Of a stretch of DNA of 35,972 nt, positions 2,856 to 30,166 are shown piece after piece; the stretch's first letter is position 1; the number at the start of each line of letters is the position of its first letter. The stretch spans positions 1 through 35,972 of IMG/VR virus record IMGVR_UViG_3300042366_000722. One strand, given 5' to 3'. The notes under the pieces are model-generated. The model was not told where the DNA came from. It did not search any database and saw only the letters and a list, made by a program, of their open reading frames with translations. Both the position numbers and the translations under genes were made by a program. This DNA comes from a virus (Duplodnaviria; Caudoviricetes).

Positions 2856-3083
2856 TTAAAGTATCGGCGGGAACTTGGGCGTCCCGCTCTCGACTGAAAC
2901 AACGGCGTCCAGAATGAACCGGATCACTGACCGCTGACCTTCGTGGTACGCGGTCAGATCGCGCTGGCCAGGCACGAATGAAGCCTTGGCATCAAACCGG
3001 GCGATCAGGTCATCAAGCACCGCCGAACCTTCGTGATGCCCGACAAGCGCCGCGTAGTAGGTTTCCGGCGTGACCTGGCTCAT
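2856..3083 (-). CDS. Small head-module protein (Bbp19-like)
   Basis: 75 aa; G..VLDDL..F....F......TAYHEGQRSVI..I pattern, position before scaffold. Confidence 0.6.
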   Translation of the reverse strand: MSQVTPETYYAALVGHHEGSAVLDDLIARFDAKASFVPGQRDLTAYHEGQRSVIRFILDAVVSVESGTPKFPPIL

Positions 3084-3517
3084 GCTGTCGCACCTTCCAT
3101 GATCTGGCGGCGATACGGGTCTTTCTGCTCATCCTTGACCACGGCATACAGGCAGCGGATCAATTCATCGAGCCGCAGAAACCACGAGTCGTAGACATTC
3201 CCGTTTAACTCCACCCGGCACCAATGGCCGAAGCGTTGATGCGGATCGGGGCCGGGGTACAGATCAGCCCCACCACCGACGATGCGAGCGCCCGCCAATG
3301 CCGGAAAGTCCGTGACCTTCGGCACAACACGCAGCGACAGCATCTTCCCGGTGAGCTTGAGATTTACCATTTCGACAGCGTGTATCAAATCGGGGAGGGA
3401 GTCATACGCTAAAGCGAATATCCGCCCATTGCCCGCGACAAGCTGCCCCTTGCTCTGGCCCAACTCGATGCGGTCGATGACGCGAAGGTCGGCGATCTGT
3501 TCGGCGGTCAGCATCAT
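3080..3517 (-). CDS. Hypothetical protein
   Basis: 145 aa ORF with ATGA overlaps at both ends. Confidence 0.6.
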   Translation of the reverse strand: MMLTAEQIADLRVIDRIELGQSKGQLVAGNGRIFALAYDSLPDLIHAVEMVNLKLTGKMLSLRVVPKVTDFPALAGARIVGGGADLYPGPDPHQRFGHWCRVELNGNVYDSWFLRLDELIRCLYAVVKDEQKDPYRRQIMEGATA

Positions 3518-3795
3518 GCGGCCTTCGGGAGCACGGCGTACAGCGCCAGCAAGGCGAGTTCTTCATCCTCGCGCGCCTTCTTCTTCGCCGCGGCGAGGTC
3601 GCCGATGATCTTTTGCAAAAACCGGCGCCTGGCTGCAATCTCGAACGGCGTCAGGTGCAGCGAGGAGTAGTCGACGGCGAAGGCGCGGGAAATGTCGCCC
3701 GAATCGACAGCGGCACCCTCTGCGGCATCCACGGCATAGACGCCCCATGAGTCGCCCCAGGCCGGGCCGAATGAAGCGCCCCATGTGGAACTCAT
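3514..3795 (-). CDS. Hypothetical protein (WG-repeat N-terminus)
   Basis: ATG 3795 overlaps upstream stop; MSSTWGASFGPAWGDSWG; 93 aa. Confidence 0.6.
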   Translation of the reverse strand: MSSTWGASFGPAWGDSWGVYAVDAAEGAAVDSGDISRAFAVDYSSLHLTPFEIAARRRFLQKIIGDLAAAKKKAREDEELALLALYAVLPKAA

Positions 3796-4292
3796 GCCGG
3801 CCCCCATTCGGTGCCGGTTTGCCCGTCGCCGGTCACAGTGATGTCGTTGACCTGCTTGATGTTGGCAGCGATGGGCGCAGCAGTTGCCGCCGCAAGCACT
3901 GCCGCAGCATTCTCAATGTCTGTCGGAACGAGCGCGATAGCGGCGCCGTTCGCCGAAATCCCCGCATTATCCGGGGCCGTGTAACTGGCAGTCGGCAGGA
4001 CATCATCCACTGAGCGCGCCTCGACCAGCAGAACCATGTCGGCAGGGTCTGCGGCCGCGCCGGTGATGTGCAGCGCCAGATCGCCAAGCGTGTCGGTGTG
4101 CGATGCGGTCAGCGCCAGCGCATACCATCCATTCCCGCGCTCGGTTACGGTCGGCGTGATCGAAGCGAACGCCGCGCCGTCCTTGCTGGCGGTGATCGTC
4201 AGCGTCAGCCCCGTCTTGCCCGTCACATGATCGGTTGAGTCGACCATCAGCACCATGACGTTCTTGGAGGTGGATTGCTTGGCTTTACGCAT
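3792..4292 (-). CDS. Putative virion structural protein
   Basis: 166 aa, Thr/Ala-rich beta domain (TGLTLTITASKDGAAF...TERGNGWYAL), C-terminal ANIKQVND..VTGDG...WGP. Confidence 0.55.
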   Translation of the reverse strand: MRKAKQSTSKNVMVLMVDSTDHVTGKTGLTLTITASKDGAAFASITPTVTERGNGWYALALTASHTDTLGDLALHITGAAADPADMVLLVEARSVDDVLPTASYTAPDNAGISANGAAIALVPTDIENAAAVLAAATAAPIAANIKQVNDITVTGDGQTGTEWGPA

Positions 4293-5184
4293 TTGCCACT
4301 CTCGACCGGCTCATGCCGCTGCTCGCACCTGGACTGATCGGGATAGTCGGATCTCGCAGATAGATCGTTGTCGCCGCCACAGGCGTCACGTTGTTCTTCG
4401 TGATCCCGGCAAGGTCAGGGCTTCCCGGCTTGTACGCGGTCAGTTGATAGTCGATGTTTCGCAGCAGCATGGAGAAGTTCCCGCTACCGTCTGAGGTTGT
4501 CTCGGCGATGATTACCGGAGCGTTCCCCGCATACTGCCAGCCGGTTTGGTAAGCGATGACGCGGCAGTTGCCGAGGGCTGCGCCGGCCCCGTCCGTCGTC
4601 GTTCCTGTGAGGGTGAAAACCTGATAACTCTGCTGTGTTTCGTAAATCTTCAGGCCGAAGGTTTCGGGCAGGGTCGCGGCAGTCAGGACTTTCAGCAACC
4701 CGCTGTCTTTCACCTCACGTCGCGGATTCAGCAACGGCATCGGGTCAGCCATTGGAACCGCAGTCAGCACACGATCGAACGCGGGAGCTTGCTGCGAGGA
4801 CATCATCACGTCTAGCCCGTACAGTTCGCCGTTCGAGTCCTGCGAAACCTGTGAGTAAAGGGCAGCAATCGCCGGGTCAATCTGCTTCGGCGGAACAGGC
4901 TGCTTGCCAATCGGGATCATGCCGACAATCCCGCCTTGAATCGCCATAGGGCCAATCTGCGAGGCTTGCGCGAAGTCAGGAAACCAGCCAATCATCGCTC
5001 TTGGTACGGGGATTTCCGGCATCTTTGAAGTCTTCCACTCGCCCATCAAGCAACGCTCGCCCTGCCAATTCACGCCGTAGTCCTGCCACGGCTCGAAGGA
5101 CAGGCCGAGCGGAGTATCCCCGATGGTCAGGTTTTGAATCACCTGATCAGAAGGTTCTGGCAGAGTTGGCCGGAGGATTCTCAT
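4285..5184 (-). CDS. Putative virion protein with C-terminal Ig/transthyretin-like beta-sandwich
   Basis: 299 aa; C-terminus FTLTGTTTDGAGAALGNCRVIAY...AETTSDGSGNFS. Confidence 0.5.
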   Translation of the reverse strand: MRILRPTLPEPSDQVIQNLTIGDTPLGLSFEPWQDYGVNWQGERCLMGEWKTSKMPEIPVPRAMIGWFPDFAQASQIGPMAIQGGIVGMIPIGKQPVPPKQIDPAIAALYSQVSQDSNGELYGLDVMMSSQQAPAFDRVLTAVPMADPMPLLNPRREVKDSGLLKVLTAATLPETFGLKIYETQQSYQVFTLTGTTTDGAGAALGNCRVIAYQTGWQYAGNAPVIIAETTSDGSGNFSMLLRNIDYQLTAYKPGSPDLAGITKNNVTPVAATTIYLRDPTIPISPGASSGMSRSRVANA

Positions 5185-5330
5185 TCTGTCGGCGGCGGCT
5201 GCACGTCGTCAGGCGCGAATGGACTGTTCCCCTCCTCAAGCCATGCGAGGAAGTCGGGGTCGTCGAGCGGGACTTGCACCCAATCGGAGCAGCGCATAAC
5301 GACATCGGCAGAGAGTTGCTTATATTTCAC
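5181..5330 (-). CDS. Small protein resembling fibre-assembly chaperones
   Basis: GTG 5330 overlaps upstream TGA; 49 aa with VPLDDPDFLAWLEEGNSP motif. Confidence 0.5.
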   Translation of the reverse strand: MKYKQLSADVVMRCSDWVQVPLDDPDFLAWLEEGNSPFAPDDVQPPPTE

Positions 5331-5878
5331 GGGGTGAGCTGCTCGATGAGGAATTGGTGCATGGTCATGGAACCAGTCGCAGCTGTCTGCGTCCAGCGGA
5401 AGTCGAGTGCATTGGCAATGGTCGAGTCGAAGCCTGTGCCAACAACTGGAGCCGTATTGAACGGGACCAAGCAACCGCCGGGGCCAGGACCCGTCGCGGG
5501 AAGCGCGGTCAGGATGTTGGCTTCGGACAGCCAGTAACCTTGCCCGAACAGGGTTGCACTGACACCTGTACCCACCGAGCGGCAGGTCAACAGTACTTCC
5601 AGTCGCCACGAAACGTTCGTCTTAGCAACGATGTTCAGCGGGATTGCCAGCGTATCGAAAGCCGTTACCGCGCCCAGGCGCAGATCAAAACGTGCCGTCC
5701 CTGGAGTCGTAACCACAGTCGAGATGCGCCCCGACGCAGTCAACCGCCACTGCCGCCCGATCTGCCAGTAGCCCGCCGGAATCGACGTAGGAACATAAGT
5801 CGGCAGGCACGATGCCGCAGCCGCCGCTGTGAGTGTCGGGCCGTCGGTGTAGGAACTTGCGATTACTTGTACGGCCAT
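5327..5878 (-). CDS. Putative virion/fibre-like beta protein
   Basis: 183 aa, Thr/Gly-rich beta strands, AAGGAG RBS. Confidence 0.55.
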   Translation of the reverse strand: MAVQVIASSYTDGPTLTAAAAASCLPTYVPTSIPAGYWQIGRQWRLTASGRISTVVTTPGTARFDLRLGAVTAFDTLAIPLNIVAKTNVSWRLEVLLTCRSVGTGVSATLFGQGYWLSEANILTALPATGPGPGGCLVPFNTAPVVGTGFDSTIANALDFRWTQTAATGSMTMHQFLIEQLTP

Positions 5879-5881
5879 GAT

Positions 5882-6058
5882 TTACTCCTTGGTTTCAGCG
5901 CGCCACTCGGCGCACCAGTTGTCGGGCTTGCTTGCCGGGAATATGCCAACTACGCCGCTTTGCCCATTTGGGCCTTGCAACATCACCGGCTGCGGTGCGT
6001 GAGCGCGGCATTCCTTCGCTAGTGCCGAATACGCGGCGCAGGTTTCGCAGGTTTTCAT
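5882..6058 (-). CDS. Small Cys-rich (metal-binding) hypothetical protein
   Basis: Not in ORF track; ATG overlaps portal stop; MKTCETCAAY...ECRAHAP...FP....NWCAEW, 58 aa. Confidence 0.65.
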   Translation of the reverse strand: MKTCETCAAYSALAKECRAHAPQPVMLQGPNGQSGVVGIFPASKPDNWCAEWRAETKE

Positions 6059-7674
6059 GCTGGCTTCGCCAGCCCTGAAATGTTGCCCTTGGCGTCTCGG
6101 ACGACCGAGGCCATCATCTGCTGCTGCTGTTGCGCCTGCTGTTGCTGCGCGCGCTGGCCGCGGGCTTCTTCGACATCAGCTGCATCGACCATCAATTCAG
6201 CCGGCACGCCAAGCAACTCTGAACGCTTGCGCGTGGCCTTGTCCCATGCGTAGTTGTCGAGCAGTTCCATCTTTCCGGTGCCGGCTGCCTCTTGCACCAG
6301 CGCTGCCTCGAAGCGATCCATCGCGGCCACATCGACGGCCTTCTGGCTGCGCGCAATCGGGCTGCGGTACTGGACGCGGAAGGATTTCCCGGCCAAGTCC
6401 TGCGGCGGATTGCCGAAGGCACCATCGCGGAACATCAGGCCGAAGACCCGATCCACCATCGGCTGCATGTACTCCGACTGCATCCGGCCATACATCGGGC
6501 CAAGCTGCTGCCGGATCAGTTCCACGTTGATGGTGGCTTCCGTCGCGGTGATCGCCGGGCCATCCTTCGGCGTCAGTTGGTCAGCCATCAACACCTTGCG
6601 GATGGATCGTTGCAGGCGGTCGATCTCCAATACGGCAATGTCGAACTTGCTGGCCGGCTGGAGCGCCTTCATCGAATCGACCGAGTTCGCCACGATCACC
6701 TTGCGCGGGCCGATCCGGATGGTCTTGGGATTCAGCACCCCATCGTCCTCGGCGATCCACATGCCGGCGATGGCCATGTCCGCATTGGCGAGGACGTAGC
6801 GAACCACCTCGTTCAGCGTCTTGGCATCCGGCAGGGCATCGTGCATCGGGCCGAGGGCATAGACCGAATCAGGGAGAACGCCCCAGCGCGGAACGACAAC
6901 CGGCATTTCGTGGAAGCCCGACTCACGCAGGACGGTCTTGCTGTCCTTCTCGAAGTGGCAGGAGGCAATCGGCATGTTCTTCGCCTGGTTGCCCTTGCCA
7001 TCTTTGCGCGGATACACCGCCCACACCATCGAGATAGACTCGTCGGGCTTGCTCGTTGCCAGCTCGCGGGTCTTATCGCTGACCATGTTCGGGCCATACT
7101 CGGCGACGGCTTGTTCGGCAGACAGCACGAATTCACGGAACACCGTGTCAATCCCGCCGCCGCGCGTTGATGCGCCGAAGTAGCAGGACGCCAGCGGCCA
7201 TTGCTCGAACTGCAAGCCTTCCTCGTTCTCGGTGATGTAGAGCGCGAACATGCCGGCGATGCTCATGTCCAGGCAGCAATCGAAGCCCACAGCATCGAAG
7301 TTCGAGGCGTGGATGTTCTCCCACATCGACTCGGCTACCTCGTCAAGCCACTTGCGGCTGGCGTCCTCGTCATCCTCGCTGGTCGTGCCAGCATCCAGAC
7401 CGAACCAGCGGGAGTTCGCCGGGGTCAGGCCGGACATCAATGCAGATGCGTGGATGCGTATCCCATCCGTTGCGGTGCTGTCGAGTAGTTCGGCCTTCTT
7501 GCTCGCGCCTTCCGAAAGATTCCCGTCCGATCCTCCGGCGCCATTGGTCGCCAGCAGCGCCCCGCGCATCGGCATCGAGAAGTTGTAGCACTTCAGCCAC
7601 TCCTGCTCGACCACGGTACGCTTTGACTTCAGCGCCCCGAGGCGACGCAGCAGGGCGGGAACGTCAGCGGCCAC
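6055..7674 (-). CDS. Portal protein (head-tail connector, T7 gp8/Bbp21-like)
   Basis: 539 aa; LDSTA, SGLTPANSRWF, RESGFHEMP..VPRW....VY..GP, TATE motifs; Gln-rich tail. Confidence 0.92.
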   Translation of the reverse strand: MAADVPALLRRLGALKSKRTVVEQEWLKCYNFSMPMRGALLATNGAGGSDGNLSEGASKKAELLDSTATDGIRIHASALMSGLTPANSRWFGLDAGTTSEDDEDASRKWLDEVAESMWENIHASNFDAVGFDCCLDMSIAGMFALYITENEEGLQFEQWPLASCYFGASTRGGGIDTVFREFVLSAEQAVAEYGPNMVSDKTRELATSKPDESISMVWAVYPRKDGKGNQAKNMPIASCHFEKDSKTVLRESGFHEMPVVVPRWGVLPDSVYALGPMHDALPDAKTLNEVVRYVLANADMAIAGMWIAEDDGVLNPKTIRIGPRKVIVANSVDSMKALQPASKFDIAVLEIDRLQRSIRKVLMADQLTPKDGPAITATEATINVELIRQQLGPMYGRMQSEYMQPMVDRVFGLMFRDGAFGNPPQDLAGKSFRVQYRSPIARSQKAVDVAAMDRFEAALVQEAAGTGKMELLDNYAWDKATRKRSELLGVPAELMVDAADVEEARGQRAQQQQAQQQQQMMASVVRDAKGNISGLAKPA

Positions 7675-12273: not shown

Positions 12274-12519
12274 ATGAACAAGGCCTTGGAATTCGTCGGA
12301 TTCAATCTCTGGCTGCTGGCCGTGACCGGCATCGCGTCCGGCGCGTTTCTGCTTTGCGCGAAGGTGATCAAGGCCATCGGCCTGAACGAAACCCCCGAGG
12401 CGTGGCTGCTGTGGGTCGTGTGCCTGCCCGTATTTGTCTGGACGTGGTACTTCGTCGGCAGCCGGTCGCTGCGACTGGTCCAGGCGTACTACAACCGGCG
12501 CGATCCGAGGAAGCATTAG
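12274..12519 (+). CDS. Small membrane protein (2 TM), antisense to the cro operon
   Basis: 81 aa with two hydrophobic segments; stop overlaps the cro stop. Confidence 0.55.
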   Translation: MNKALEFVGFNLWLLAVTGIASGAFLLCAKVIKAIGLNETPEAWLLWVVCLPVFVWTWYFVGSRSLRLVQAYYNRRDPRKH

Positions 12520-12722
12520 GCGGCCTTCGCCGTACCGCTGGCGCCGACTTTCGCCCGCCTGATCTGGCGCCGGAACATCTCGCCATGTTCCAGTTGAACT
12601 CGCGCCGGGATTCCCCGTGCGAGCCAGTTCGTTACTCGCTGCGGCCCGAACTGTCCATAGTTCAGCCGCCTTGCCAGTTCAGCCGGCCCCCCGAATGCTT
12701 CAATGACTGTTTTAGCTTCCAT
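12516..12722 (-). CDS. cro: Cro-like repressor
   Basis: 68 aa; IEAFGGPAELARRL....QRVTNWLARGIP; divergent from cI-like gene. Confidence 0.8.
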   Translation of the reverse strand: MEAKTVIEAFGGPAELARRLNYGQFGPQRVTNWLARGIPARVQLEHGEMFRRQIRRAKVGASGTAKAA

Positions 12723-12730
12723 AGGCCAGA

Positions 12731-12759
12731 AGTATTGCCGAATAAACGCGATGTGTCAA
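12731..12759 (-). promoter_or_regulatory. Sigma70 promoter for cro operon (PR-like)
   Basis: TTGACA-17 nt-AATACT on minus strand directly ahead of cro. Confidence 0.65.
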
Positions 12760-12793
12760 GCGCGATATACATTCATCTGTTTAGCATCAAGCG

Positions 12794-13201
12794 ATGCGAA
12801 TGACTACCGATAAACGGGTGCGCCTGCTAATGAAGGCGACCGATACCGAGGGCAACCAGGCCGAGTTCGGCCGTGTTGCAGGGGTCGGGCGCGCAACCGT
12901 CAATCAATGGCTCTACGCTGACAACACCAGGTCGATAAACTCCGAGGCCGCTTTCCGGCTCTCCGACAAAACGGGGATGTCCGCGCGCTGGGTTGCCTTG
13001 GGCGAGGGGCCGCAAAAAGACTTGAGCGCCAAATTCGGGAAGTTCGATGAATCTGATCTGGATGTTCTGGCCGATCTGTCCGAGCTTCTTTATGAGGATG
13101 CGGCGGACTTCAAGGCGAAGATTAGAAACGCCGCAGAAAAAGCCCGGAGATACCGGCAAAAGGAACCGGATTCCCCCATCCGGCGCACCGGGACAAGATA
13201 A
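12794..13201 (+). CDS. CI-like HTH repressor (no S24 peptidase domain visible)
   Basis: NQAEFGRVAGVGRATVNQWL HTH and SARWVALGEGP motif; divergent from cro; only 135 aa. Confidence 0.75.
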   Translation: MRMTTDKRVRLLMKATDTEGNQAEFGRVAGVGRATVNQWLYADNTRSINSEAAFRLSDKTGMSARWVALGEGPQKDLSAKFGKFDESDLDVLADLSELLYEDAADFKAKIRNAAEKARRYRQKEPDSPIRRTGTR

Positions 13202-13342
13202 CCCTCCCCCGGCTGCGCGTGATCCGGGTTAATGCTAAAGTCATATCTCTAAAGAGTTATATGGATAACCGTGACGAACTGATTAGGCTGGCTAAGTAGG
13301 CGCAGCGGCAGCGCTTTTGCCGTACTTATTTTGGGGCGCATC

Positions 13343-13633
13343 ATGAAAACCATCATTGCATCTGTACTGTTCGCGTCGTCAATGCTTCCGGCTTTTGCAG
13401 CCGATCACAGTCCGCTTGAGACTACCGATCAAGCTCGCCAGCGTCATTCTGCGGAAAACTACGAGGCACAGCGCAGGCAAGAAAACCAGTTGCTTACTCC
13501 GTCGTACCAGCATCCGCTGGGCAGCCCTTCGGTTTCCGGCATTGAACGGCCCGGCTACGTCTCCCCGCAACCGGCCTATCAGCCGGCTACCACTCATGGC
13601 GGAAACTGGCGGGACCGCGTCAAAGGGCGCTGA
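13343..13633 (+). CDS. Secreted/periplasmic hypothetical protein (moron-like)
   Basis: MKTIIASVLFASSMLPAFA signal peptide with AFA cleavage site; followed by terminator. Confidence 0.65.
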   Translation: MKTIIASVLFASSMLPAFAADHSPLETTDQARQRHSAENYEAQRRQENQLLTPSYQHPLGSPSVSGIERPGYVSPQPAYQPATTHGGNWRDRVKGR

Positions 13634-13682
13634 TTCTCTCCTGGCTGCGCTAGTCGGCGCCGGCTGAACCCCATCCGGTAAT

Positions 13683-13710
13683 AAAGCCCGCTCGGTGCGG
13701 GCTTTTTTTT
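13683..13710 (+). terminator. Rho-independent terminator
   Basis: AAAGCCCGC-TCGGT-GCGGGCTTTTTTTT. Confidence 0.9.
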
Positions 13711-13738
13711 CGCCTTACGTCTTACGCGTATATTCCTA

Positions 13739-13767
13739 TTGACACGCTTTGTTTATTCCTCCATACT
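13739..13767 (+). promoter_or_regulatory. Sigma70 promoter of the early recombination/integron/int operon (PL-like)
   Basis: TTGACA-17 nt-CATACT; shares TTGACAC-n5-GTTTATTC with the cro promoter. Confidence 0.75.
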
Positions 13768-13906
13768 GCCATCAATCGCTGAACAACGCGACAGGCAAAA
13801 GCCCCGAGCGGGCCGAGTCAGCCAAGGAAAGAAAGCCCTCTGCCACCGGCAAGGCGTGATCCGACAGCGACACAGCCGACCAGTGCAACGAACATAGGGG
13901 ATTGTC

Positions 13907-14200
13907 ATGGGGTATTTTGAACTCGCCGTAAATCTCACCCGCGCCGAAGCCGCGCCCACGCTGGCGAAGGTTGCCAGCAAGGCTATCGCGCTCAAGACGA
14001 TCAAGAACCGGGCACAGGAAACGTGCTGCTGTTCCTCGTATTCCTTCCCACACCGCGCCGGCTCTGGCTGGTGCCCCGGCGTGAATCGCAACGACGAGCG
14101 CAGCGCAGAAGCCGAGCGCACACGCGAAGAAATCAACGCCGAAGAACTCGCCCTGTTTGATCGGGCCGAGGCTCGGGCTGTCAATTCAGGGGCGCGGTGA
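13907..14200 (+). CDS. Hypothetical protein (Cys/His motif)
   Basis: 97 aa with CCCSSYSFPHRAGSGWC motif; TGATG overlap with next gene. Confidence 0.6.
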   Translation: MGYFELAVNLTRAEAAPTLAKVASKAIALKTIKNRAQETCCCSSYSFPHRAGSGWCPGVNRNDERSAEAERTREEINAEELALFDRAEARAVNSGAR

Positions 14201-14373
14201 TGAACGCCCTGCGCTCCCTGTTCATTCAAATGTGTCTCTGGTGGATCGAGCGCGACATTCGATTCATTCAGCACCAGCGCGAAATGATGCTCGAACACCT
14301 GACCGAAGCGCGCAATCAGCGCATGGCATGGCTGGCCGAGTTGGATGATATTTCAATGGATCGGCCATGCTGA
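14200..14373 (+). CDS. Hypothetical protein
   Basis: Not in ORF track; MNALRSLFIQMCLWWIERD..., 57 aa, overlaps neighbours at both ends. Confidence 0.55.
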   Translation: MNALRSLFIQMCLWWIERDIRFIQHQREMMLEHLTEARNQRMAWLAELDDISMDRPC

Positions 14374-14573
14374 CCAAGGACGCCGCCGTATTCGCCGGGG
14401 TCTGCGTAATGGGCATCTTCGCGCTCGGCCTTGAGATCGGCAAGCAGCATCAGCCGATGCTCTGTCCGGTCGTTCCCGGTCAGCAGATCGTCAGCACCGT
14501 GGCGCCGGATGTTTGCGTCTATGCCAGCAGTTACGGCAGGGCGCTTCGCAAAGTGAAGGCGGTCAAATCATGA
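14367..14573 (+). CDS. Hypothetical membrane-anchored protein
   Basis: 68 aa with N-terminal hydrophobic helix. Confidence 0.55.
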   Translation: MLTKDAAVFAGVCVMGIFALGLEIGKQHQPMLCPVVPGQQIVSTVAPDVCVYASSYGRALRKVKAVKS

Positions 14574-14660
14574 GTGATGACGGCGGCCAATGGTGGCAAA
14601 CCGTAGGACAGCAGGAGCAGCAACGCGCAGACGCGCAATCAACCGGACAGGAGATTAATC

Positions 14661-15536
14661 ATGTTTCAGAAAGCAACCAAGAAGCAAGCCAAGCTGCGGC
14701 TGGCAATCAGCGGCCCGAGCGGATCGGGCAAGACGATGGGCGCGTTACAGGTCGCCTCGGGTCTTGGCGGTAAGCTCGCTCTGGTCGATACCGAACACGG
14801 CAGCGCCAGTCTGTATTCCGGGCGCTTCGCCTTCGACGTGCTGGAACTGGCCCCGCCATTCGCGCCTGAACGCTTCATTGAAGCCATCAACGGCGCTGCG
14901 GCAGCCGGCTACACCGCGCTGATCATCGACAGCGTAACGCACGAATGGGATGGATCGGGCGGCATCCTCGACATTCACGACAAGGTGACACGCGCCGCCA
15001 AGAGCGGCAACAGCTACACCGCCTGGGCGGAAGTCACCCCGCGCCACAATGCGCTGCTGAATGCCATCCTGCGCGCCCCGATCCACATCATTTGCACCCT
15101 GCGCAGCAAGACCGAATATGTCCTGCAAGACGTAGGCGGCAAGTCGGTTCCGCGCAAGCTCGGCATGGCCCCGATCCAGCGCGCCGGCTTCGAGTACGAG
15201 TTCACCACGGTGCTTGATCTGTCCCTCGACAATCACCTGGCCACCGCCACCAAGGACCGCACCAGTCTGTTCGATGGACAGACACCGGAGGCGCTGTCTG
15301 CAGCCACCGGCAAGAAGATGCTTGACTGGCTCAACGATGGCGAACAGCAAGCGCACTACGACGTCGACGCCGCGCTGGCCCGCATGGAGCGCGCCCACAG
15401 CCTGGATGAACTCGCCGCCACCTTCACCGAGCTTTGGCCTGCCGTGCCGCTGGAACACAAGCAGCGCATCGCCGCCGCAAAAGACCACTACAAATCCAAA
15501 TTCAATCCTAATCCCACACAAGGAGCCGCCGCATGA
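14661..15536 (+). CDS. Sak4-like (AAA_24) ssDNA annealing ATPase
   Basis: Walker A GPSGSGKT, LVDTEHGSA, IIDSVTHEW, FEYEF; AGGAG RBS. Confidence 0.85.
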   Translation: MFQKATKKQAKLRLAISGPSGSGKTMGALQVASGLGGKLALVDTEHGSASLYSGRFAFDVLELAPPFAPERFIEAINGAAAAGYTALIIDSVTHEWDGSGGILDIHDKVTRAAKSGNSYTAWAEVTPRHNALLNAILRAPIHIICTLRSKTEYVLQDVGGKSVPRKLGMAPIQRAGFEYEFTTVLDLSLDNHLATATKDRTSLFDGQTPEALSAATGKKMLDWLNDGEQQAHYDVDAALARMERAHSLDELAATFTELWPAVPLEHKQRIAAAKDHYKSKFNPNPTQGAAA

Positions 15537-16249
15537 ACGCACCCACCACCCCGAATCTGACCACCCCGCCGACCTACGGCTACGACACCACCCACGCCGC
15601 TGCTGCTGACACTGGCGGAATGGGCAAGTTCATTGACGAGTCCGGCGAGTACGTCGGCGCCATCACCTACGCTCGCGCCGTCCAATCCTCGAAGGGAGGA
15701 TGGGGCGTCGAGATCGCATTCCAGGCCGACGACGGCCGCAAGACGAAATACCCAATGACCCTCTGGACGCTCGCCGCCGATGGCGCCCGCCAGTTCGGGC
15801 ATGACATCCTCGACACCGTTTTGATCTGCGCCGGCATGAAACCCGCGATGGCCATGAAGCCCGGCAAGGTCACGTACACCGTCTATGACTTCGACCTGCG
15901 CGCCGATGTCGAAAAGGAAGGCGACGGCTATCCCGGCCTGACCGGCAAGCGCATCGGCCTGCTGATCCAGCGCGAGATGTACACCACCAAGGCCGGCAAG
16001 GATGCAGCGCGGCACTCGATCTATGGCGCCTTCGATGCCGAGACACGGCAGGCAGCGAGCGAGAAGCTGGAAAGCAAGCCCGCGGTAATCACCGAGAAGC
16101 GCCTGGCATCGCTCAAGGATCGCGACTCGCGCACCGCTGGCGCACCGGCTGGAAGCTACGACAACGGGTTCAGCGCACCAAGCGGCGCACCGAATCCCGC
16201 GCCGGCTGCCGGATCGTTTGATGACATGGCTGACGATATTCTGTTCTGA
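15533..16249 (+). CDS. Putative single-stranded DNA-binding protein
   Basis: Follows Sak4; FIDESGEYVG start and acidic-aromatic tail DDMADDILF. Confidence 0.7.
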   Translation: MNAPTTPNLTTPPTYGYDTTHAAAADTGGMGKFIDESGEYVGAITYARAVQSSKGGWGVEIAFQADDGRKTKYPMTLWTLAADGARQFGHDILDTVLICAGMKPAMAMKPGKVTYTVYDFDLRADVEKEGDGYPGLTGKRIGLLIQREMYTTKAGKDAARHSIYGAFDAETRQAASEKLESKPAVITEKRLASLKDRDSRTAGAPAGSYDNGFSAPSGAPNPAPAAGSFDDMADDILF

Positions 16250-16251
16250 TC

Positions 16252-16755
16252 ATGGGACTCCCCGCCCTCTACGAACTGGCGTCTGAGTACCGCGCCGCCG
16301 CCGCGCAGCTTGCCGACCTCGACCTTCCTCCGGAGGTTGTGGCCGACACGCTCGAAGGCTTGGCCGGCGATCTGGAAACCAAGTCGACCAACGTCGCCAT
16401 GTTCATCCGCTCGCTAGATGCTACCGCTGCGCAGATCAAGGACGCCGAAGCCGCAATGGCAGCCAGGCGCAAGGCCATCGAAGCCCGCGCTGATCATGTA
16501 CGCAAGTACCTGCTGGACAACATGCAGGCGTGTGGCATTACAAAGATCGAATCGCCCTGGTTCAAATTGTCTGTTCGCCAGAATCCGGCTGCCGTGGTAA
16601 TTGATAACGCTGGACTGATACCGGGGAATCTGTACGTCTACCCGTCAGCGCCGGAACCCTACCCCGATAAAAAAGCGATCAAGGCCGCCATCGAAGCCGG
16701 TATTGAATTTGAGGGCGCGCACCTTGAGCGCGGCGTAAGACTTGAAATCAAGTGA
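16252..16755 (+). CDS. Siphovirus Gp157 family protein
   Basis: LYELASEY...DTLEGL.GDLETK...RQNPAAV...PDKKAIKAAI. Confidence 0.85.
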   Translation: MGLPALYELASEYRAAAAQLADLDLPPEVVADTLEGLAGDLETKSTNVAMFIRSLDATAAQIKDAEAAMAARRKAIEARADHVRKYLLDNMQACGITKIESPWFKLSVRQNPAAVVIDNAGLIPGNLYVYPSAPEPYPDKKAIKAAIEAGIEFEGAHLERGVRLEIK

Positions 16756-16943
16756 ATGACAGACACCACCAAGGCACCGAAAGCCTCCTAGAACTCGCCG
16801 CCGAACTCGAAGAAGTCGCGCCGAATGTCGAGGAATTCTTCAGCCACAAGCGGGCGGCGGCTCTCATGCGGAAAACGGCGGGAGTGGTGCGGAGGCTTGC
16901 GCCACTTGAACCGGAAATTGATGTCGTGCTGGGGGAGCATTGA
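16752..16943 (+). CDS. Hypothetical protein
   Basis: 63 aa, GTGA overlap upstream, TGATG overlap downstream. Confidence 0.55.
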   Translation: MNDRHHQGTESLLELAAELEEVAPNVEEFFSHKRAAALMRKTAGVVRRLAPLEPEIDVVLGEH

Positions 16944-17026
16944 TGAGTCTCAACGCAAAAGCTGTGGGGCTGGACGCCGCAGGCGGACAGTCCCACACGA
17001 GCGACGGGTTGTGCCCCGGCGATTGA
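16943..17026 (+). CDS. 27-aa mini-ORF reading through the attC hairpin
   Basis: MSLNAKAVGLDAAGGQSHTSDGLCPGD*; GGGGAG SD and TGATG coupling; stop lies just before the RBS of the cassette gene. Confidence 0.5.
   Translation: MSLNAKAVGLDAAGGQSHTSDGLCPGD
16948..17014 (-). other. attC recombination site (67 bp)
   Basis: Minus strand: R'' GCACAAC-5 nt-L'' GCTCGTGT...L' CCACAGC-6 nt-R' GTTGAGA; imperfect hairpin with unpaired extra bases on the R''-L'' arm. Confidence 0.85.
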
Positions 17027-17370
17027 ACGGAGAACGAAATGCAGCAATGCGAGCGACTGCGAAAGCACAACCGCTGGAGGCGCGGCGACAAGCGCCTGAA
17101 GATGCCAGACCCGAAAGAACTCGGGGAACTGATCGACGGCGTGGCCGACCGGCTGGAAGTGCTGGAGCGCGAACACACGGAGTTTTTCGACCGCTGGCAC
17201 GATGAGCGGCGGAAGCGAGAGAAGCTGGCGTACGACGTTGAGCGGTGTTATCGGATGCTGCTATCGGAGCCAGACACGAAGGGCGCACTTTTCAAGGCCG
17301 AAAACATCCTGCGCGAGGCGCTGGGCGACCAGAAAGTCGGCGCTGGCGGGACGGCACCCGAGGGGCACAA
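16954..17370 (-). mobile_element. Integron gene cassette (417 bp) carrying an inverted ORF
   Basis: Bounded by AAC crossover triplets at 16952-54 and 17369-71; GTTGTGCCCC (17008-17017) is a perfect 10-bp complement of GGGGCACAAC (17362-17371), as expected for R''/R' of one circular cassette. Confidence 0.8.
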
Positions 17371-17401
17371 CTTAAATTCAACGACACCCGATGTCGCGTG
17401 A
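17039..17401 (+). CDS. Cassette-borne hypothetical protein; last 9 codons and stop supplied by attI
   Basis: 120 aa, GGAG RBS; LRKHNRWRRG...PKELGELID N-terminus, helical remainder. Confidence 0.7.
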   Translation: MQQCERLRKHNRWRRGDKRLKMPDPKELGELIDGVADRLEVLEREHTEFFDRWHDERRKREKLAYDVERCYRMLLSEPDTKGALFKAENILREALGDQKVGAGGTAPEGHNLNSTTPDVA

Positions 17402-17424
17402 ACACCGGAACCATGTCGCATAAC
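17362..17424 (-). other. attI-like site
   Basis: Minus strand CGTTGAA-TTTAA-GTTGTGC simple site plus two direct repeats GTTATGCGACAT / GTTCACGCGACAT, between the cassette and the intI start; no attC-type hairpin. Confidence 0.7.
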
Positions 17425-17452
17425 TCTGCACGCATCCACGGAGGCCTGCACC

Positions 17453-18496
17453 ATGACTGAAGTCATTGAACGAAACGCGACAACGCCCGCCGTCAAACGC
17501 GACATGCCGACCGCTTCACCGGCACAGCAAAAGCCGGTCAAGTTGCTCGACCAGGTGCGCGAGCGAATCTGCGTGCTGCATTACGCCCGCGCCACCGAGA
17601 AAACCTACCTCTACTGGATCAAGTTTTACATCCACTTTCACAGCCTGCGTCACCCCCGCGACATGGGCGCCGCCGAGGTCGAAGCCTTCCTCTCGCACCT
17701 AGCCACGGCGCGCGACGTCGCCGCCGGCACACAGAACCAAGCCATGCACGCCATCCTGTTCCTTTACAAGCAGGTGCTCGGCATCGATCTGCCTTGGCTC
17801 GACGGCATCACCCGCGCCAAGCCATCGAAGCGACTGCCCGTCGTACTCACCCAGGGCGAGGCGCAGCGCTTGCTCGCCGCCACACGCGGCACGCCGGGGC
17901 TGGTGGTGCGCCTGCTCTACGGCAGCGGCATGCGCCTCATGGAAGGCCTGCGGCTGCGCGTCAAGGACATCGACTTCGAGCGCAACCAGATCACCATCCG
18001 CGGCGGCAAAGGCGACAAGGACCGCGTCACCATGCTGCCGGCCAGCATCGTCCCTGCCCTGCAGGCCCACCTCGCCGAACGTCGCCGCTGGCATGACAAG
18101 GATTTGGCCACCGGCATGGCTGATGTTGAACTGCCGCATGCGCTAGAGCGCAAATACCCGAATGCCGGCAAAGAGTGGGGATGGCAATACGTTTTCGCCG
18201 CCGCCGACTACAGCACCGACCCGCGCACTGGCGTGATTCGCCGCCACCACATTCACGAAAAGACCATCCAGCGCCACGTCAAGGATGCCGCCCAGCGCGC
18301 CGGCATCAGCAAGCTGGCGCATCCGCACACGCTTAGGCACTCGTTTGCCACACACCTGCTGGAGGCCGGCTATGACATCCGCACCGTGCAGGAGCTGCTC
18401 GGCCACAGCGACGTGGCGACCACCATGATCTATACCCACGTCCTCAATAAAGGCGGTCGCGGCGTTGTCAGCCCGCTGGATCGCGTCACGACATGA
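17453..18496 (+). CDS. intI: Integron integrase (IntI family tyrosine recombinase)
   Basis: R-K-H-R-H-Y residues ([37 protein letters not shown]) plus the IntI-specific insertion [24 protein letters not shown]...[13 protein letters not shown] and the SPLD tail. Confidence 0.95.
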
Positions 18497-18648
18497 CCGA
18501 ACGCGCCCAGCACATCCACTGCGCCCGCGTATATCTGACCGAGGCCCGCCGTCGCCGGACTCAGACCTTCGGCTTCGTGTTGCTGGAATGGGCCGGGAAT
18601 GCGAGAAGGCGGGCGATGGCGGCTACCGGGCAGGGGGAGTTGTTCTGA
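18493..18648 (+). CDS. Hypothetical protein
   Basis: Not in ORF track; ATGA overlap with intI; [22 protein letters not shown]...QGELF, 51 aa. Confidence 0.6.
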
Positions 18649-18650
18649 TC

Positions 18651-18962
18651 GTGGCTCCCGATCTGCTCACCTACGAAGCAGCGGCAGCACTGCTCACTGT
18701 CAGCCCGGCCACCGTGCGCCGGCTGGTGCGTGCCGGGCATCTGCGCGGGCACGCTATTACCCGACGCTGCCATCGGGTTGACGCCGCCAGCGTGCGGGCG
18801 TACCTTCGCACGTCCGCCATCCCCGTCCTCGTCCTATGTCAGTCTGGAAAAACCGCGATACCTGGCGCTGGCGCGTCATGCGCGGCGGCCTTGTCGCTAC
18901 AGGAAGCGCACGAACGCGCGAAACGGCGCTTGCGGCAGAAGCGGGCGCCCGCCGCGAACTGA
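18651..18962 (+). CDS. xis: Excisionase-like HTH protein
   Basis: GTG after GGGGAG; LLTYEAAAALLTVSPATVRRLVRAGHL; overlaps the integrase start. Confidence 0.7.
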   Translation: MAPDLLTYEAAAALLTVSPATVRRLVRAGHLRGHAITRRCHRVDAASVRAYLRTSAIPVLVLCQSGKTAIPGAGASCAAALSLQEAHERAKRRLRQKRAPAAN

Positions 18963-19861
18963 TCGCCGGAATCACCGGCACCCAGCCAAAGCGCACACTT
19001 GACGAAGCTCTGGTGCGCTATCTCGACAGTCCGGAATTTCTCACCCTCAAAAGCGCCGCCAGTTTGGCCGACAAGCTCGCTACCTGGCACCCCTACATCA
19101 CCGCGCAACCGATCGAGCGCGCCGCCGATGTCGCTGATGTCGCCGTGCGCGACTGGCTCGCCAATGACCTGGCCATCGCCACCATCAATCGCCGGCTTTC
19201 CGGGCTGCGGCGCATCTTGGCGCTGGCGTATAAGCGTTGGCAGTGGATCGACCGCGATATTGCCGTGCGAATCCCGCTGCTACCGGGCGAGAACCAGCGG
19301 CAAGTATGGCTTACCCGCGCCGAGGCTGTGCGCTTGCGTCGCGCCTGCCCGCCCGGTCGCAGCCGGGCCGCTATTACCCTGCTGGTCACCACCGGCCTGC
19401 GCGTGGGCGAATTGCTCGCATTGCGCGCCGAGCAGGTCCGCGACGGCGCCATCCATCTTGACGCGCGTACCAAGACCGGCCGCCCCCGGGCGGTGCCGAT
19501 ACTTCCCCCGGGTAATCGCTACACCAGCCATGTGCCGCTGCGCATGAGTTATGACGGACTGCGCACCGCCTTTGATCGTGCAAAGCGTGCCGCCGGCTTG
19601 CCATCGATCCGCCTGCATGATCTGCGACATACCGTCGGCAGTCTGCTGGCCGAATCAGGCGCCAGCTTGCGTGATATTCAGGTCTGGCTCGGGCACACCA
19701 GCCCGGTGACCAGCACCCGCTACACCCACGTCGAGCTTGCCCGGTTGCGCAGCGTAGCAGACCAGGTGCATGCGCGCAATCTGCGCGCAAAGGACAGCGC
19801 AAACCGGGCGCAACTGGCGCGAGTGACGCCAGAGACACAACGGGAAACGCAGCCTAAGTGA
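18836..19861 (+). CDS. int: Phage integrase (tyrosine recombinase)
   Basis: TGLRVGELLAL, TKTG, HDLRHT, LGHTS..TSTRYTH; ends 11 bp before a tRNA-derived att core. Confidence 0.92.
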   Translation: MSVWKNRDTWRWRVMRGGLVATGSARTRETALAAEAGARRELIAGITGTQPKRTLDEALVRYLDSPEFLTLKSAASLADKLATWHPYITAQPIERAADVADVAVRDWLANDLAIATINRRLSGLRRILALAYKRWQWIDRDIAVRIPLLPGENQRQVWLTRAEAVRLRRACPPGRSRAAITLLVTTGLRVGELLALRAEQVRDGAIHLDARTKTGRPRAVPILPPGNRYTSHVPLRMSYDGLRTAFDRAKRAAGLPSIRLHDLRHTVGSLLAESGASLRDIQVWLGHTSPVTSTRYTHVELARLRSVADQVHARNLRAKDSANRAQLARVTPETQRETQPK

Positions 19862-19988
19862 TTGTTTTTACGTGGTGCCCGGAACCGGACTTGAACCGGT
19901 ATGGCTTGCGCCGAGGGATTTTAAGTCCCGCGAATGCGTATTTGTAATCATGTAGTTAGCTTGTTTGTGCGCGCAAAATACGCGCAAC
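19771..19988. repeat. Putative integrase arm-type sites flanking the attP core
   Basis: Tandem TGCGCGCAA-like pairs at ~19771-19790 and ~19968-19988, with AT-rich tracts next to the core. Confidence 0.5.
19873..19929 (-). other. attP core: 3' part of tRNA-Leu(UAA)
   Basis: Minus strand GGGACTTAAAATCCCTCGGCGCAAGCCATACCGGTTCAAGTCCGGTTCCGGGCACCA has anticodon arm (TAA), long variable arm, T arm and CCA; 5' half is absent. Confidence 0.9.
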
Positions 19989-20098
19989 AGGTCGCAGAGC
20001 GCGCATTCTATACCGCTGCCGCCGCGCGACCTCACTCGGGAATGGCGCGTTCGCCCGCAGCTTGAGTGTCGAAACGTAGCAGCGGAGGATGCCGGACC

Positions 20099-20533
20099 TC
20101 ATTTCATTTTGTCGAGGATGGTGTAGCAGGCTTCGAGTCCGGCGTCTCCTCGGGCAGCAAGGGCAGCGATCCGCGCAAGAAATCGGCTATGAGCGCCTGA
20201 TAGTTCAGCCCCGTTGGCACCCTCACAACCAGATCGGGGAGCTTCGGACACTCCGGCGGGGCGCTCGGGGCGGTCGCGCAGGCTGTCAAGAGCAGTATCG
20301 AGAGTGCGCTGCACGCCAGCCAGGCGCGCGGCTTGTTTTTTCGTGGCTGCATCGTAAGCCTCCTGTAGTTTTCTTTCAGTGTCGCGGGCAGCTTTGAAAG
20401 AATCGGCCCGTTCTTTTTCAATCTTCGCCGTCCAGCGCGTGTCGGCGGCATTGCTGCCGTGGGCATTCCAATAGAACCCGTTGGCGACAAAAGCCAGCAC
20501 CACGGCCAGCAGAAGCATCGGATTGGGGATCAT
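20099..20533 (-). CDS. i-spanin (Rz-like)
   Basis: ATG 20533 overlaps endolysin stop; N-terminal TM then coiled coil, C-terminal Cys. Confidence 0.75.
   Translation of the reverse strand: MIPNPMLLLAVVLAFVANGFYWNAHGSNAADTRWTAKIEKERADSFKAARDTERKLQEAYDAATKKQAARLAGVQRTLDTALDSLRDRPERPAGVSEAPRSGCEGANGAELSGAHSRFLARIAALAARGDAGLEACYTILDKMK
20104..20352 (-). CDS. o-spanin lipoprotein (Rz1-like), embedded in Rz
   Basis: Signal with lipobox LLLTA-C then Pro-rich APSAPPECPKLP, in another frame inside Rz. Confidence 0.75.
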   Translation of the reverse strand: MQPRKNKPRAWLACSALSILLLTACATAPSAPPECPKLPDLVVRVPTGLNYQALIADFLRGSLPLLPEETPDSKPATPSSTK

Positions 20534-28300: not shown

Positions 28301-28544
28301 TGCGCTGCTTGACCTTGGCGGCGTCGGCTTCCAGACCCTTGCTGGCGATCTCGGCGGCCATTTCCATCATGCTGCGCGGGGTCACGGCTTGGCCGGCCTT
28401 CTGCAATTCCACCCGAGCGGCAGGCATCGCCGACCGGACGCGATCCTCGATGTTCTTCAGTTCGTTGGCGTTCAGTGATCGGCCGATGGCCTGCGTCACG
28501 GCGTCTATGCACTCGGCTTTCACTATGCGGCCCTCAGAAAGCAA
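25311..28544 (-). CDS. Large internal virion (ejection) protein; likely start GTG 28523
   Basis: 1077 aa, helical; last of three internal-protein genes after tubular B; hydrophobic segments near C-terminus. Confidence 0.75.
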   Translation of the reverse strand: MLSEGRIVKAECIDAVTQAIGRSLNANELKNIEDRVRSAMPAARVELQKAGQAVTPRSMMEMAAEIASKGLEADAAKVKQRIANTIAAHDRVQNYLATAKARGIDSLTAIDQLVAFDAKATGRVMSIETQGKAIGDEAVGQLVNTFEATNPTWFGMVEDMAGVRLLVKEMMGENTGSPEAAAGAKAWKETTEALRLRFNQAGGDIGKLEDWGLPHHHSQSKVWKAGADAWVKDIMPMLNRDKYVRPDGTLMDDAELDGVLRKAWETISSNGMNKIEPGKVTGSAMRANWGSESRQIHFKDGDGWTAYQTKYGEQGFYDVMMGHVRGIAHQIALVETFGPNPNRSFELFRDQAILDGIAAKTDNPNAINEKAMKTTRLFNHVAGQVLPVANEGMARGFDSLRSWLVASRLGSAVITSITDEATMALMGHVNNLPEMQILRNELTALNPANKTDRRLLARMGLAGEVMASNLGRFGQEGLGASFASKMATATIRASGLSAMTAARKAAFGATMMDSIGQLVKTKGFDKLDPLDHRILLSKGVTETDWAVWRLANLETWRGNETMLTPEAVRAIPDAEIAKVMQPEIDKIKAAAKAQIDELNARNDQETGWVDKRIDRFKDAQAAAAKKIGKMAVDKDAKVQKLSEALQARIDLVQAEIERVKVRAEIEAAFQNEKNSDNVRGLLADVHRATNEANEYVPGANSELSRIFEGKADSLAARVASAGGSLGRQYGLREGALTRRIVEIEARIRNAERSSDAEVMRADKAETKRLDDIRDELAAFWFRSNERQQRRQFVMDRIARDVDPQIGQAIGRARSAATTRLLGAVLEEVDMAVITPGARTKVITQGSQSRGTLGGELWRSIWLFKSFPLAMIERHVSRGMNWGGESGGTAGGRAKYLMPLVLGTTLLGGLAVEISEILAGRDPKNANPWDDPKKAAKFWAQAFFKGGSLGLYGDFIYSEATQHGGGGLSAMLGPVAGLAEEMIGLTQGNLIQMAQGKDTRAGAELVKAAKGLTPGASLWYVKGAADHLFFQQLQNELSPGYLSSMASRARREFGQEYFWEPGHAAPSRAPDISRVAGG

Positions 28545-30166
28545 GCGACCGCAGCGCGCAAGCCTGTTTCCTGCTCGCGTGCGGCGGTCTCTAGGTCGGT
28601 GATGATGCCCTGCGCCTCGGCAACCGTTGCGGTGCCGCCGTCTTCGTCCATCGGGATTACGGCATCGGGGCGCACGGTGTCAGGGATGGTAATGCCGCCA
28701 GCCTGATCTGCTGCACCGGCAACAGGGGCGGCGGCGGGATCGGGGGCCGCCGTGGTGTCGGCGCCGACTTTTTGGGCTTGGAATGGAGCTTCTGATATTT
28801 GCCCAGAATCAAACACGACAACTTCGTCACCGCCGCGCCACACGATGCTATCGAACCCCTGCGCCTTCAGTTCTGCAATGCTCTCTTTTGTCATGTACGC
28901 AGGAGGCAAATCATCCTCCCACACCTTCGGATTCTTGATGTCGAGATACCTCTCCATCACGTTCTGCCCATATCCGGAAGCATCGTCACTTCTTGCGCTG
29001 AAATAAAAGCCCTGTCGATCAGGGAACCCTTTTGTCGACTTTGGCGCGGCAGGGTCAAATTCTGAAAAGACGCGATTTGTTCCGTGATAGAACGGTTGAT
29101 CCGGAGGAAACATCTGCGGGAGTTCGGGGGGCACCGGCTCCACCGCTGGCCGCAGCACTTCCGCGACATCCTCCTGCACCTTCGCCGCCGCAGGGTCGGG
29201 GATGAAGTCGCCGACCTCCTGCCGCATCGTCACGGGCCGGCCCTCGATCAGATCGTCAATCGCGCCGGTCATGTTGGCAACGTGCGAATCACGCGAGGCC
29301 AGATCAGCCGGCAGGCCGAAGCCGGGGCGCTCGATCTTTAGCTGCTCGGACTTCACCAGCGCCGCGTCGATGTCGGACGGCTTGAGCATGTCGGCGATCT
29401 TGGCGCGGTACTCGGCCATTGCATCGGCCTTGGCCTTCTCGCCGCGCAGTTGCAGCGCCCGACCGCCACCGGCAAACGCTGCGCCGAGGATGGCATCTAC
29501 CGCCATCGCTTCACCGTCCAGCGCCTTGAACTGCATCGCCAAATCAGCCCGCCCGGCCTTGGCGTAAATCTCCGAAGTCATGCCGCGCTGGAACACGCCT
29601 TGCGCGAGGTTGATGCCGGCGCCGTAGATCAGGTTCATGCCCAGCCCGGTGCTGCCGAGCGTCATCGGGGCGATTACGCCGGCTGTCATTGCTGCGCCCT
29701 GCACGCCGCCGACCTTGGCAGCCGTCTGAAGGTCGACGCCCTTGTCGAGCGCATCCAGCGTGCCGCCGACCGTTTCATTGACCAGCACGCCGCCCGGGCC
29801 GAAGGCTACCGCCTCGCCGCCGATCTTCACCAGCCCATGCAGGATTTGCCCCGCCATGCCGATTTCCTCGGCCTTCGGTGCCAGATGCCGGGAGAGCTTG
29901 TCAGCCGGCGTCACGATATGCTCGAACACCTTGTCCTGCGCCTTGATGGCGTCGCCGGTCAGCAGGTCGAAGCTGCCGGCCACTGCGCCCAGGGCGAGGC
30001 CGGTCGTGCGCTGCGTGTCGGCTGCCAGCCGGCCCAAGCCGGTGACCAAGCCCGTCCCCATGCCGGTGAAGAATCCAGCGGGTTGACTTAGATCAAGCGG
30101 ATTCGCCCGCGCCTGGTCGATCAGGCTGGCGCTGTCGTGATCCCCGGCAAGGTCGAAGGCGCTCAT
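28523..30166 (-). CDS. Internal virion (ejection) protein with an inserted ADP-ribosyltransferase-like domain
   Basis: Gly/Ala-rich membrane-like N-terminal half; YHGT..GFYFS..EVVVF domain at ~28795-29097. Confidence 0.7.
   Translation of the reverse strand: MSAFDLAGDHDSASLIDQARANPLDLSQPAGFFTGMGTGLVTGLGRLAADTQRTTGLALGAVAGSFDLLTGDAIKAQDKVFEHIVTPADKLSRHLAPKAEEIGMAGQILHGLVKIGGEAVAFGPGGVLVNETVGGTLDALDKGVDLQTAAKVGGVQGAAMTAGVIAPMTLGSTGLGMNLIYGAGINLAQGVFQRGMTSEIYAKAGRADLAMQFKALDGEAMAVDAILGAAFAGGGRALQLRGEKAKADAMAEYRAKIADMLKPSDIDAALVKSEQLKIERPGFGLPADLASRDSHVANMTGAIDDLIEGRPVTMRQEVGDFIPDPAAAKVQEDVAEVLRPAVEPVPPELPQMFPPDQPFYHGTNRVFSEFDPAAPKSTKGFPDRQGFYFSARSDDASGYGQNVMERYLDIKNPKVWEDDLPPAYMTKESIAELKAQGFDSIVWRGGDEVVVFDSGQISEAPFQAQKVGADTTAAPDPAAAPVAGAADQAGGITIPDTVRPDAVIPMDEDGGTATVAEAQGIITDLETAAREQETGLRAAVACFLRAA

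Follow-up and report, generated by a model that had tools for sequence, protein, structure and literature searches.

Integron function is held to require a correctly oriented gene behind the Pc promoter, and the integrons of phages have been portrayed as rare captured fragments. The locus analysed here raises the question of how a cassette gene that runs opposite to its own attC site is carried, exchanged and read in a phage genome. In the layout described below the gene is reversed, such reversal is general in phage arrays, and related arrays differ by breaks that fall exactly at AAC. Our best explanation, which we consider probable, is an integron platform lying in the early operon of a temperate phage, where the gene stands opposite to attC and is likely transcribed from a PL-like promoter and not from Pc.

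An integron platform in the early operon of a temperate phage

The window, by which we mean the whole stretch of DNA that was analysed, is a whole virus record, 35,972 bases long and ending in direct terminal repeats, and is a complete temperate phage. Its minus strand carries the capsid, portal, terminase, lysis and primase-helicase genes. On the plus strand a cI-like repressor is followed by a terminator-like site, a promoter-like site at 13739, small ORFs, an AAA ATPase, SSB and Gp157, and the same strand continues through the cassette and intI to an xis-like gene and a phage integrase. The features of this region are:

12516..12722, minus strand: cro-like regulator (Pfam YdaS, below the cut-off), behind the PR-like promoter
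12759..12731, minus strand: PR-like promoter from the promoter scan, preceding the cro-like regulator
12794..13201, plus strand: cI-like repressor (PHROG transcriptional repressor matches, E 4e-7)
13683..13705, plus strand: intrinsic-terminator-like site from the terminator scan, directly 5' of the PL-like promoter
13739..13767, plus strand: PL-like promoter (TTGACA-17-CATACT), a function assigned by inference
13907..16943, plus strand: early operon with small ORFs, AAA_24 ATPase, SSB, Sipho_Gp157 and a 63-aa ORF
16948..17014, minus strand: attC including the R' and R'' boxes, from the structural scan, HMM and junctions
16954..17370, minus strand (attC orientation): cassette of 417 bp, delimited by R''/core complementarity
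17039..17401, plus strand: cassette gene A (120 aa, three predicted helices, no family), its stop codon within attI
17365..17452, minus strand: attI, with core GTTGTGC at 17371..17365 and conserved repeats; it holds the intI GGAG ribosome site (plus strand)
17453..18496, plus strand: integron integrase IntI (347 aa; TIGR02249, 482 bits against a cut-off of 265)
18651..19861, plus strand: xis-like HTH_17 gene and phage tyrosine integrase
19867..19935, minus strand: attP-like stretch, similar in sequence to the 3' half of a tRNA

This is the layout of a lambdoid PL operon, with a cro-cI switch and two similar promoters, followed on one strand by recombination genes, xis, int and attP. The genes between 13907 and 16943 are tightly packed, with intergenic gaps of -7 to +2 nt in a list that includes one short ORF added by eye. 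The PL-like and PR-like promoters flank the repressor and have a common 8-mer in their spacers. They are the only two promoter-like sites in 12500-20100 and shuffles average 1.7, so that their position and mutual likeness, not their number, carry the argument. The scan found no terminator-like site on the plus strand between 13705 and 18554; promoter and terminator calls are consensus matches only. Rfam gave no relevant family over 13000-20100. The tRNA that the attP-like stretch resembles is presumably tRNA-Leu, and ARAGORN returned no whole tRNA there.

Three further features of the record were noted. Just 3' of the PL-like -10 box lies CTG-N10-CAG (13779-13794), a partial LexA-box match that is possibly due to chance and was left unused. 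Between repressor and terminator, a moron-like 96-aa ORF with a hydrophobic N-terminus and no family match occupies 13343-13633, and the virion region encodes a protein with an ART-PolyVal ADP-ribosyltransferase domain (28523-30166, Pfam E 8e-16).

The attC site and the limits of the cassette

A structural scan of both strands of the whole window gave a sole attC match, at 17010..16952 on the minus strand, made up of R'' (GCACAAC), a 5-nt spacer, L'' with an extra C, L', a 6-nt spacer and R' (GTTGAGA), that is, the hairpin with R and L boxes and an extra-helical base found in integrons. An attC HMM, trained on 60 sites from bacterial genome loci only, matched the same place (17013..16952, minus strand, E 1.2e-4), with the next match at E 2.1 and none on the plus strand there. 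Among 60 dinucleotide shuffles of the window, 27 held a loose attC match and 2 an equally good one, and the chance of a match within 600 nt 5' of intI is about 0.009. In an alignment of 76 attC sites 95.5% of cells were paired and two-sided changes occurred at 11/11 stem pairs, which is partly by construction as the sites were selected for pairing.

The cassette ends match, with GTTGTGC/GCACAAC on both sides, and the crossover in attC would fall between 16954 and 16953. As in a canonical cassette, matching core and inverse core bound the unit, and the identical 418 nt in another phage shows it to be mobile as a single piece; a gene upstream of, and co-oriented with, its own attC is not found. 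A plus-strand gene A is preceded in L060-L065 by an attC body that is the same or related, and the sequence left of AAC is unrelated in each, and since the attC body stays constant while its left flank changes, attC belongs to the downstream gene.

We also considered that attC might lie on the plus strand and belong to the upstream ORF 16752-16943, in which case the cassette would be canonical and only intI flipped. That ORF does stop 8 nt before the site, like a canonical gene, but only the minus strand accommodates the extra base and the 5/6 spacers, the site moves together with the gene 3' of it, and L001 retains the upstream ORF yet swaps the site at AAC. We give this reading almost no credence, and the junctions refute it. 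The preliminary description of this DNA had placed attC on the minus strand, pointing away from intI, and the structural scan, the bacterial-trained HMM and the junctions all agree with that placement.

Gene A is the conserved gene of the cassette and ends inside attI

With attC on the minus strand and gene A on the plus strand, the gene is inverted relative to its site, as previously proposed. A GGAG ribosome site lies 8 nt 5' of its start. We found 303 homologues, and across 24 distinct homologous stretches the gene A frame is open in 24/24, against 9/24, 4/24 and 4/24 for the three antisense frames. In six alleles, third codon positions hold 410 of 580 pairwise differences, and codon changes are 380 synonymous against 148 non-synonymous (pairs not independent). 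The proposal that the plus-strand ORF at 17039 is the credible cassette gene is therefore borne out, as it is the only conserved gene, open in 24/24, with third-position-biased variation.

Could the true cassette gene instead be one of the minus-strand ORFs 16864-17178, 16748-17200 or 16950-17288? The third codon positions of the first coincide with those of gene A, and over the tested part this ORF is stop-free in 7/7 close alleles, with its start codon lost in 3. Starts or frames of the minus-strand ORFs are nevertheless broken in 2-4 of 7 alleles, two of the three leave the cassette into the phage flank, none has a Pfam or PHROG match, and antisense frames are open in at most 9/24 homologues. 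We regard this alternative as extremely improbable.

A point missed by the preliminary description is that gene A extends beyond the cassette across the attI core, taking its last 9 residues and its stop from attI. Its homologues carry diverse tails after a constant His-Asn or Pro-Asn. No Pfam, NCBIfam, PHROG or PADLOC match was obtained, matches in the ESM Atlas were confined to unnamed clusters (best 0.90) and one weak lead, Ead/Ea22, at 0.80, and the gene A DNA had no match among GenBank phages. The AlphaFold model (pLDDT 84) has three helices with residues 104-120 disordered, and Foldseek found no match to it in BFVD at E 0.001 or better. By position and build, the product is likely a small helical early accessory protein.

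Two kinds of variants were also seen. In runs X7 and X9 both ends of cassette A are kept and 219 other letters stand between them (window 17021-17333), which is a different gene, and in P0090, P0111 and P0118 the C-terminal half of protein A is swapped.

The integrase and its attachment site

IntI is a tyrosine recombinase of the IntI family with the integron-specific insertion, it aligns end to end with 2A3V (E 1.4e-90), and we take its catalytic motifs to be intact in that alignment. As in other integrons, an attI with a GTT core adjoins the 5' end of intI, and in phage-clade loci the sequence right of AAC is conserved and the left side variable. In a tree of 120 rows the window falls inside a viral-only group of 31 rows (SH-aLRT 94, by a quick method) whose neighbours are betaproteobacterial and Geobacteraceae IntIs. 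The GenBank phage set holds no IntI of this clade among 9 matches, all below 60% identity.

One locus with inverted cassettes, L037, falls outside this group: a constraint placing it with 23 group rows was rejected (p-AU 4e-7, 54 rows, the group having been picked after the first tree), and it likely represents a separate intI capture. In this locus (3062-6951) IntI groups with Gallionella/Thiobacillus IntIs, the attI spacer is longer and the Pc-like score is 9. A separate, long-branched, viral-only group of IntI-like proteins (L023, L025, L026, L033) has no attC match nearby.

A survey of 75 hand-picked ORFs 3' of intI in 22 loci found a co-oriented phage integrase in 14/22 and an opposed one in 1 (L044); other genes at this position encode ParB, HNH, RusA and portal proteins. 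The succession of intI and integrase is absent in L011, L017, L039 and L002. Because head-tail adaptor and portal genes follow intI in L011, and RusA in L039, the PL setting is not universal.

Inverted cassettes predominate in phage arrays

The preliminary description had proposed surveying ORF orientation in other phage intI loci. Relatives of IntI led to 59 viral loci and, with 4/64 parts scanned, to 80 loci in bacterial genomes, and a gene A search gave 14 viral and 34 metagenome loci, so the viral sample is seeded by the window's own IntI and gene A. L004, L064, L067 and L074 were omitted as duplicates, and cut, partial, duplicate and a few weak matches were dropped before counting. An attC model, R1, which acts mainly as a sequence model (the supplied structure string was off by three columns), recovered 160 sites from 71 viral sources; in 157 cases the site lay on the minus strand and intI or gene A on the plus strand.

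Orientation was scored by a symmetric test on complete cassettes of 120-1300 nt, requiring a ribosome site, a start within 90 nt and at least half of the cassette covered. Inversion predominates among the 103 viral cassettes: 74 were inverted, 3 canonical, 2 both and 24 neither. Metagenomic cassettes (n=40) gave 29 inverted, 0 canonical, 2 both and 9 neither, and those from bacterial loci (n=77) gave 3 inverted, 25 canonical, 1 both and 48 neither. Of the three viral cassettes scored canonical, one is miscalled, because its inverted ORF is a DNA methyltransferase; single sites scored canonical lie in L014 (at a contig edge) and L058 (outside the clade). PHROG matches were found for 33/103 inverted-strand ORFs and 0/103 canonical-strand ORFs of the viral cassettes; in loci picked by IntI alone the count is 25/67, the remaining 36/103 cassettes coming from gene A-picked loci. 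For bacterial cassettes, canonical ORFs had a Pfam match in 19/72 and inverted ones in 1/72, a library that differs from the one in the PHROG count. R''/core complementarity holds at 7/7 positions in 75/103 viral and 60/77 bacterial cassettes. Inverted ORFs (n=103, viral and metagenomic) end before the core in 23 cases, inside it in 19, six bases into the next site in 24 and further on in 37.

The phage cargo is of early-gene type, comprising DNA methyltransferases, Mom-like, PAPS-reductase-like, DHH phosphoesterase, exonuclease and Lar-like genes. PADLOC matched 0/20 hand-picked cassette proteins, and none of the viral cassettes had a match spanning 80% of its length in the 80 bacterial loci. 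These findings suggest that the swappable genes exchanged among phages form a largely separate pool. The earlier idea of a phage-specific pool holds as far as phage enrichment goes (PHROG 33/103 against 0/103), but "specific" is too strong, given inverted cassettes in two bacterial integrons: a Halothiobacillus assembly (L180:3019-3776) has two between canonical ones, one matching phrog_1273, and a Thiobacillus assembly (L169:2320-2609) has one phage-like inverted cassette between canonical ones. The pool leaks into bacteria and is not sealed. The inverted L180 protein had no match among GenBank phages. The sole inverted Pfam match among bacterial cassettes is a DUF5131 gene in a Gallionella integron cassette (L125:5686-6558).

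Probable turnover of arrays at the AAC junction

Up to the left AAC, L001 and the window are 99.98% identical across 4,619 nt, and their IntI is identical, whereas their arrays, three plus-strand cassettes in L001 against one in the window, change exactly at the attI core/AAC. A 33,888-nt contig of L001 type is present in run X4, run X8 has the same junctions, and runs X5, X6 and X11 have window-type junctions. The window cassette is identical to the L060 copy (418/418 nt), the L060/L028 phage having an IntI of 69% identity, and differs from the L001 copy at 34 positions (92% identity). That L001 copy of cassette A is in turn identical to those in L062 and L063, and the attI-proximal cassette of L001 to one in L063. 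Since the same backbone occurs with another array and identical cassettes occur elsewhere, the window-type array likely turns over. L002 and L003 have distal cassettes in common and differ near attI and mid-array, the pattern that insertion at attI together with excision should leave. Neither an empty attI nor a circular cassette joint appeared in contigs of 8 DNA runs, which cannot exclude either.

The differences falling exactly at AAC are the indirect basis, in sequence, for the putative IntI-catalysed attC x attI recombination, and cassettes could be swapped by a recombinase source other than the window's IntI. Along this line, the inverted pool might be older than, and independent of, the window's intI, spread by host IntI or another recombinase through attC x attC or GTT-like secondary sites, with the phage intI a later passenger. 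Among complete records with gene A, whole or part, 4/5 lack IntI (L061, L062, L063, L069) and one of these has 17 attC sites, L037 combines inverted cassettes with an IntI of different lineage (AU p 4e-7, group chosen afterwards), and cassette insertion outside att sites is described in 10.1101/2022.09.11.507474. Against this stand the intact, clade-conserved IntI of the window, the conserved attI and the L001/window changes exactly at the attI core, and the uniform orientation is not explained by an older pool alone. We therefore consider the older pool somewhat unlikely, while noting that it is compatible with the platform in the early operon, and both may be true.

The complete record with seventeen sites is L061 (1800-7835), and L063 has eleven. 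In L001 the distal attC (4613-4632) is reduced to two R boxes and a 6-nt spacer with its hairpin lost, and that cassette would thus be fixed in place.

Which promoter reads the cassette?

Consensus matching gave no Pc promoter that could drive the array from its attI end. The best Pc-like score in the window is 7 of 12, and sites scoring at least 9 of 12 upstream of intI occur in 0/22 phage-clade loci against 26/61 bacterial ones, in line with the previous suggestion that Pc is not the driver. Pint-like promoters (0/22 against 18/61) and LexA-like boxes (0/22 against 7/61) follow the same trend, a contrast that is crude and confounded by lower A+T upstream of phage intI (0.55 against 0.68).

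The inverted cassettes might be read from promoters of their own, which some bacterial cassettes possess, and then PL would not be needed. Promoter-bearing cassettes, antisense included, are reported in 10.1101/2023.11.21.568050, and a 95-nt gap lies 5' of gene A. This gap is, however, occupied by attC, the distance from the core to most starts, about 18-37 nt, leaves little room, and the scan found no promoter-like site in it, so that we find cassette-borne promoters quite unlikely. The single cassette of the window lies 3.3 kb from the PL-like promoter, from which its gene would be read, and a reversed expression gradient along the array may be envisaged.

A possible route to reversed cassettes

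On the explanation that we favour, intI and attI would have been captured sense-wise into the operon, with Pc and Pint lost, and IntI would still join the attC bottom strand to attI. IntI prefers this strand, fixing cassette direction at attI, according to PMC5027507. The attC of each inserted cassette would then point away from intI, and with attC direction fixed and intI read in the operon direction, the operon transcript would read only gene-reversed cassettes. Lifting of the repressor would lead to IntI, the cassette genes and xis-int being made together. New cassettes would enter at attI, the promoter-distal end, many genes draw their stop codon or a short tail from the adjoining site, and phages without intI might use the IntI of the host or of an intI-bearing phage.

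Taken jointly, the observations allow a wider reading, a serious possibility that we offer tentatively, in which phages run a mirror-image integron economy with a shared reversed pool, a polarity firewall and position-dependent C-terminal tails. A phage IntI clade, acquired at least twice, would shuffle reversed cassettes among phages with and without intI; host cassettes, anti-phage ones included, would be silent at phage attI and phage cassettes silent behind host Pc. As stop-less genes take C-terminal tails from the neighbouring attC or attI, shuffling would alter proteins too.

With an intact, turning-over integron wired into a phage operon and a large reversed pool to draw on, site-specific recombination would have a role in the mosaic early regions of phages. 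That cassettes can be built with either polarity is relevant to how they are made, and a single IntI and attI, together with identical cassettes shared by different phages, make a small, tractable system.

Relation to known systems

The system is integron-like yet departs from integrons in Pc and gene orientation. It resembles canonical bacterial integrons (class 1, Vibrio, betaproteobacterial chromosomal) in the IntI insertion, an attI located 5' of intI, attC sites directed away from intI, the conserved extra base and R''/core complementarity. Unlike in these, the cassette genes face intI and not away from it, there is no Pc-, Pint- or LexA-like site, intI lies 81 nt from the attI core within a phage operon, and the cargo is of phage early-gene type.

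Integron parts in phage genomes, with methyltransferase cassettes, are described in the accessible text of Qi et al. 2023 on phage integrons and CALINs (PMC9892861), which also reports that phage attC sites recombine with IntI1. That text does not mention gene inversion relative to attC. Both phages whose orientation was checked are canonical: Shewanella M16-3 has genes away from intI, a LexA box and weak attC matches, and in TJE1 attC and genes share a strand. Model R1 found no attC in Virus Rctr41k. Over titles and abstract starts, with most subscription papers outside coverage, we found no published description of reversed phage cassettes.

Wrong-way insertion by top-strand attC recombination, as given in Nivina et al. 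2016 (PMC5027507), likewise leaves a gene facing away from Pc control, but there gene and attC flip together. In the window the attC direction is normal and the gene alone is reversed, so the cassette was built that way. The "reverse orientation" integrons of Spirochaetota (10.1101/2022.02.06.479319; here L172 and L179) are alike in having intI and cassette genes on one strand, and differ in that L172 and L179 carry the array 3' of intI with a canonical gene-attC relation. Separately, in L015 (7610-9038) a second run of inverted cassettes lies 3' of intI.
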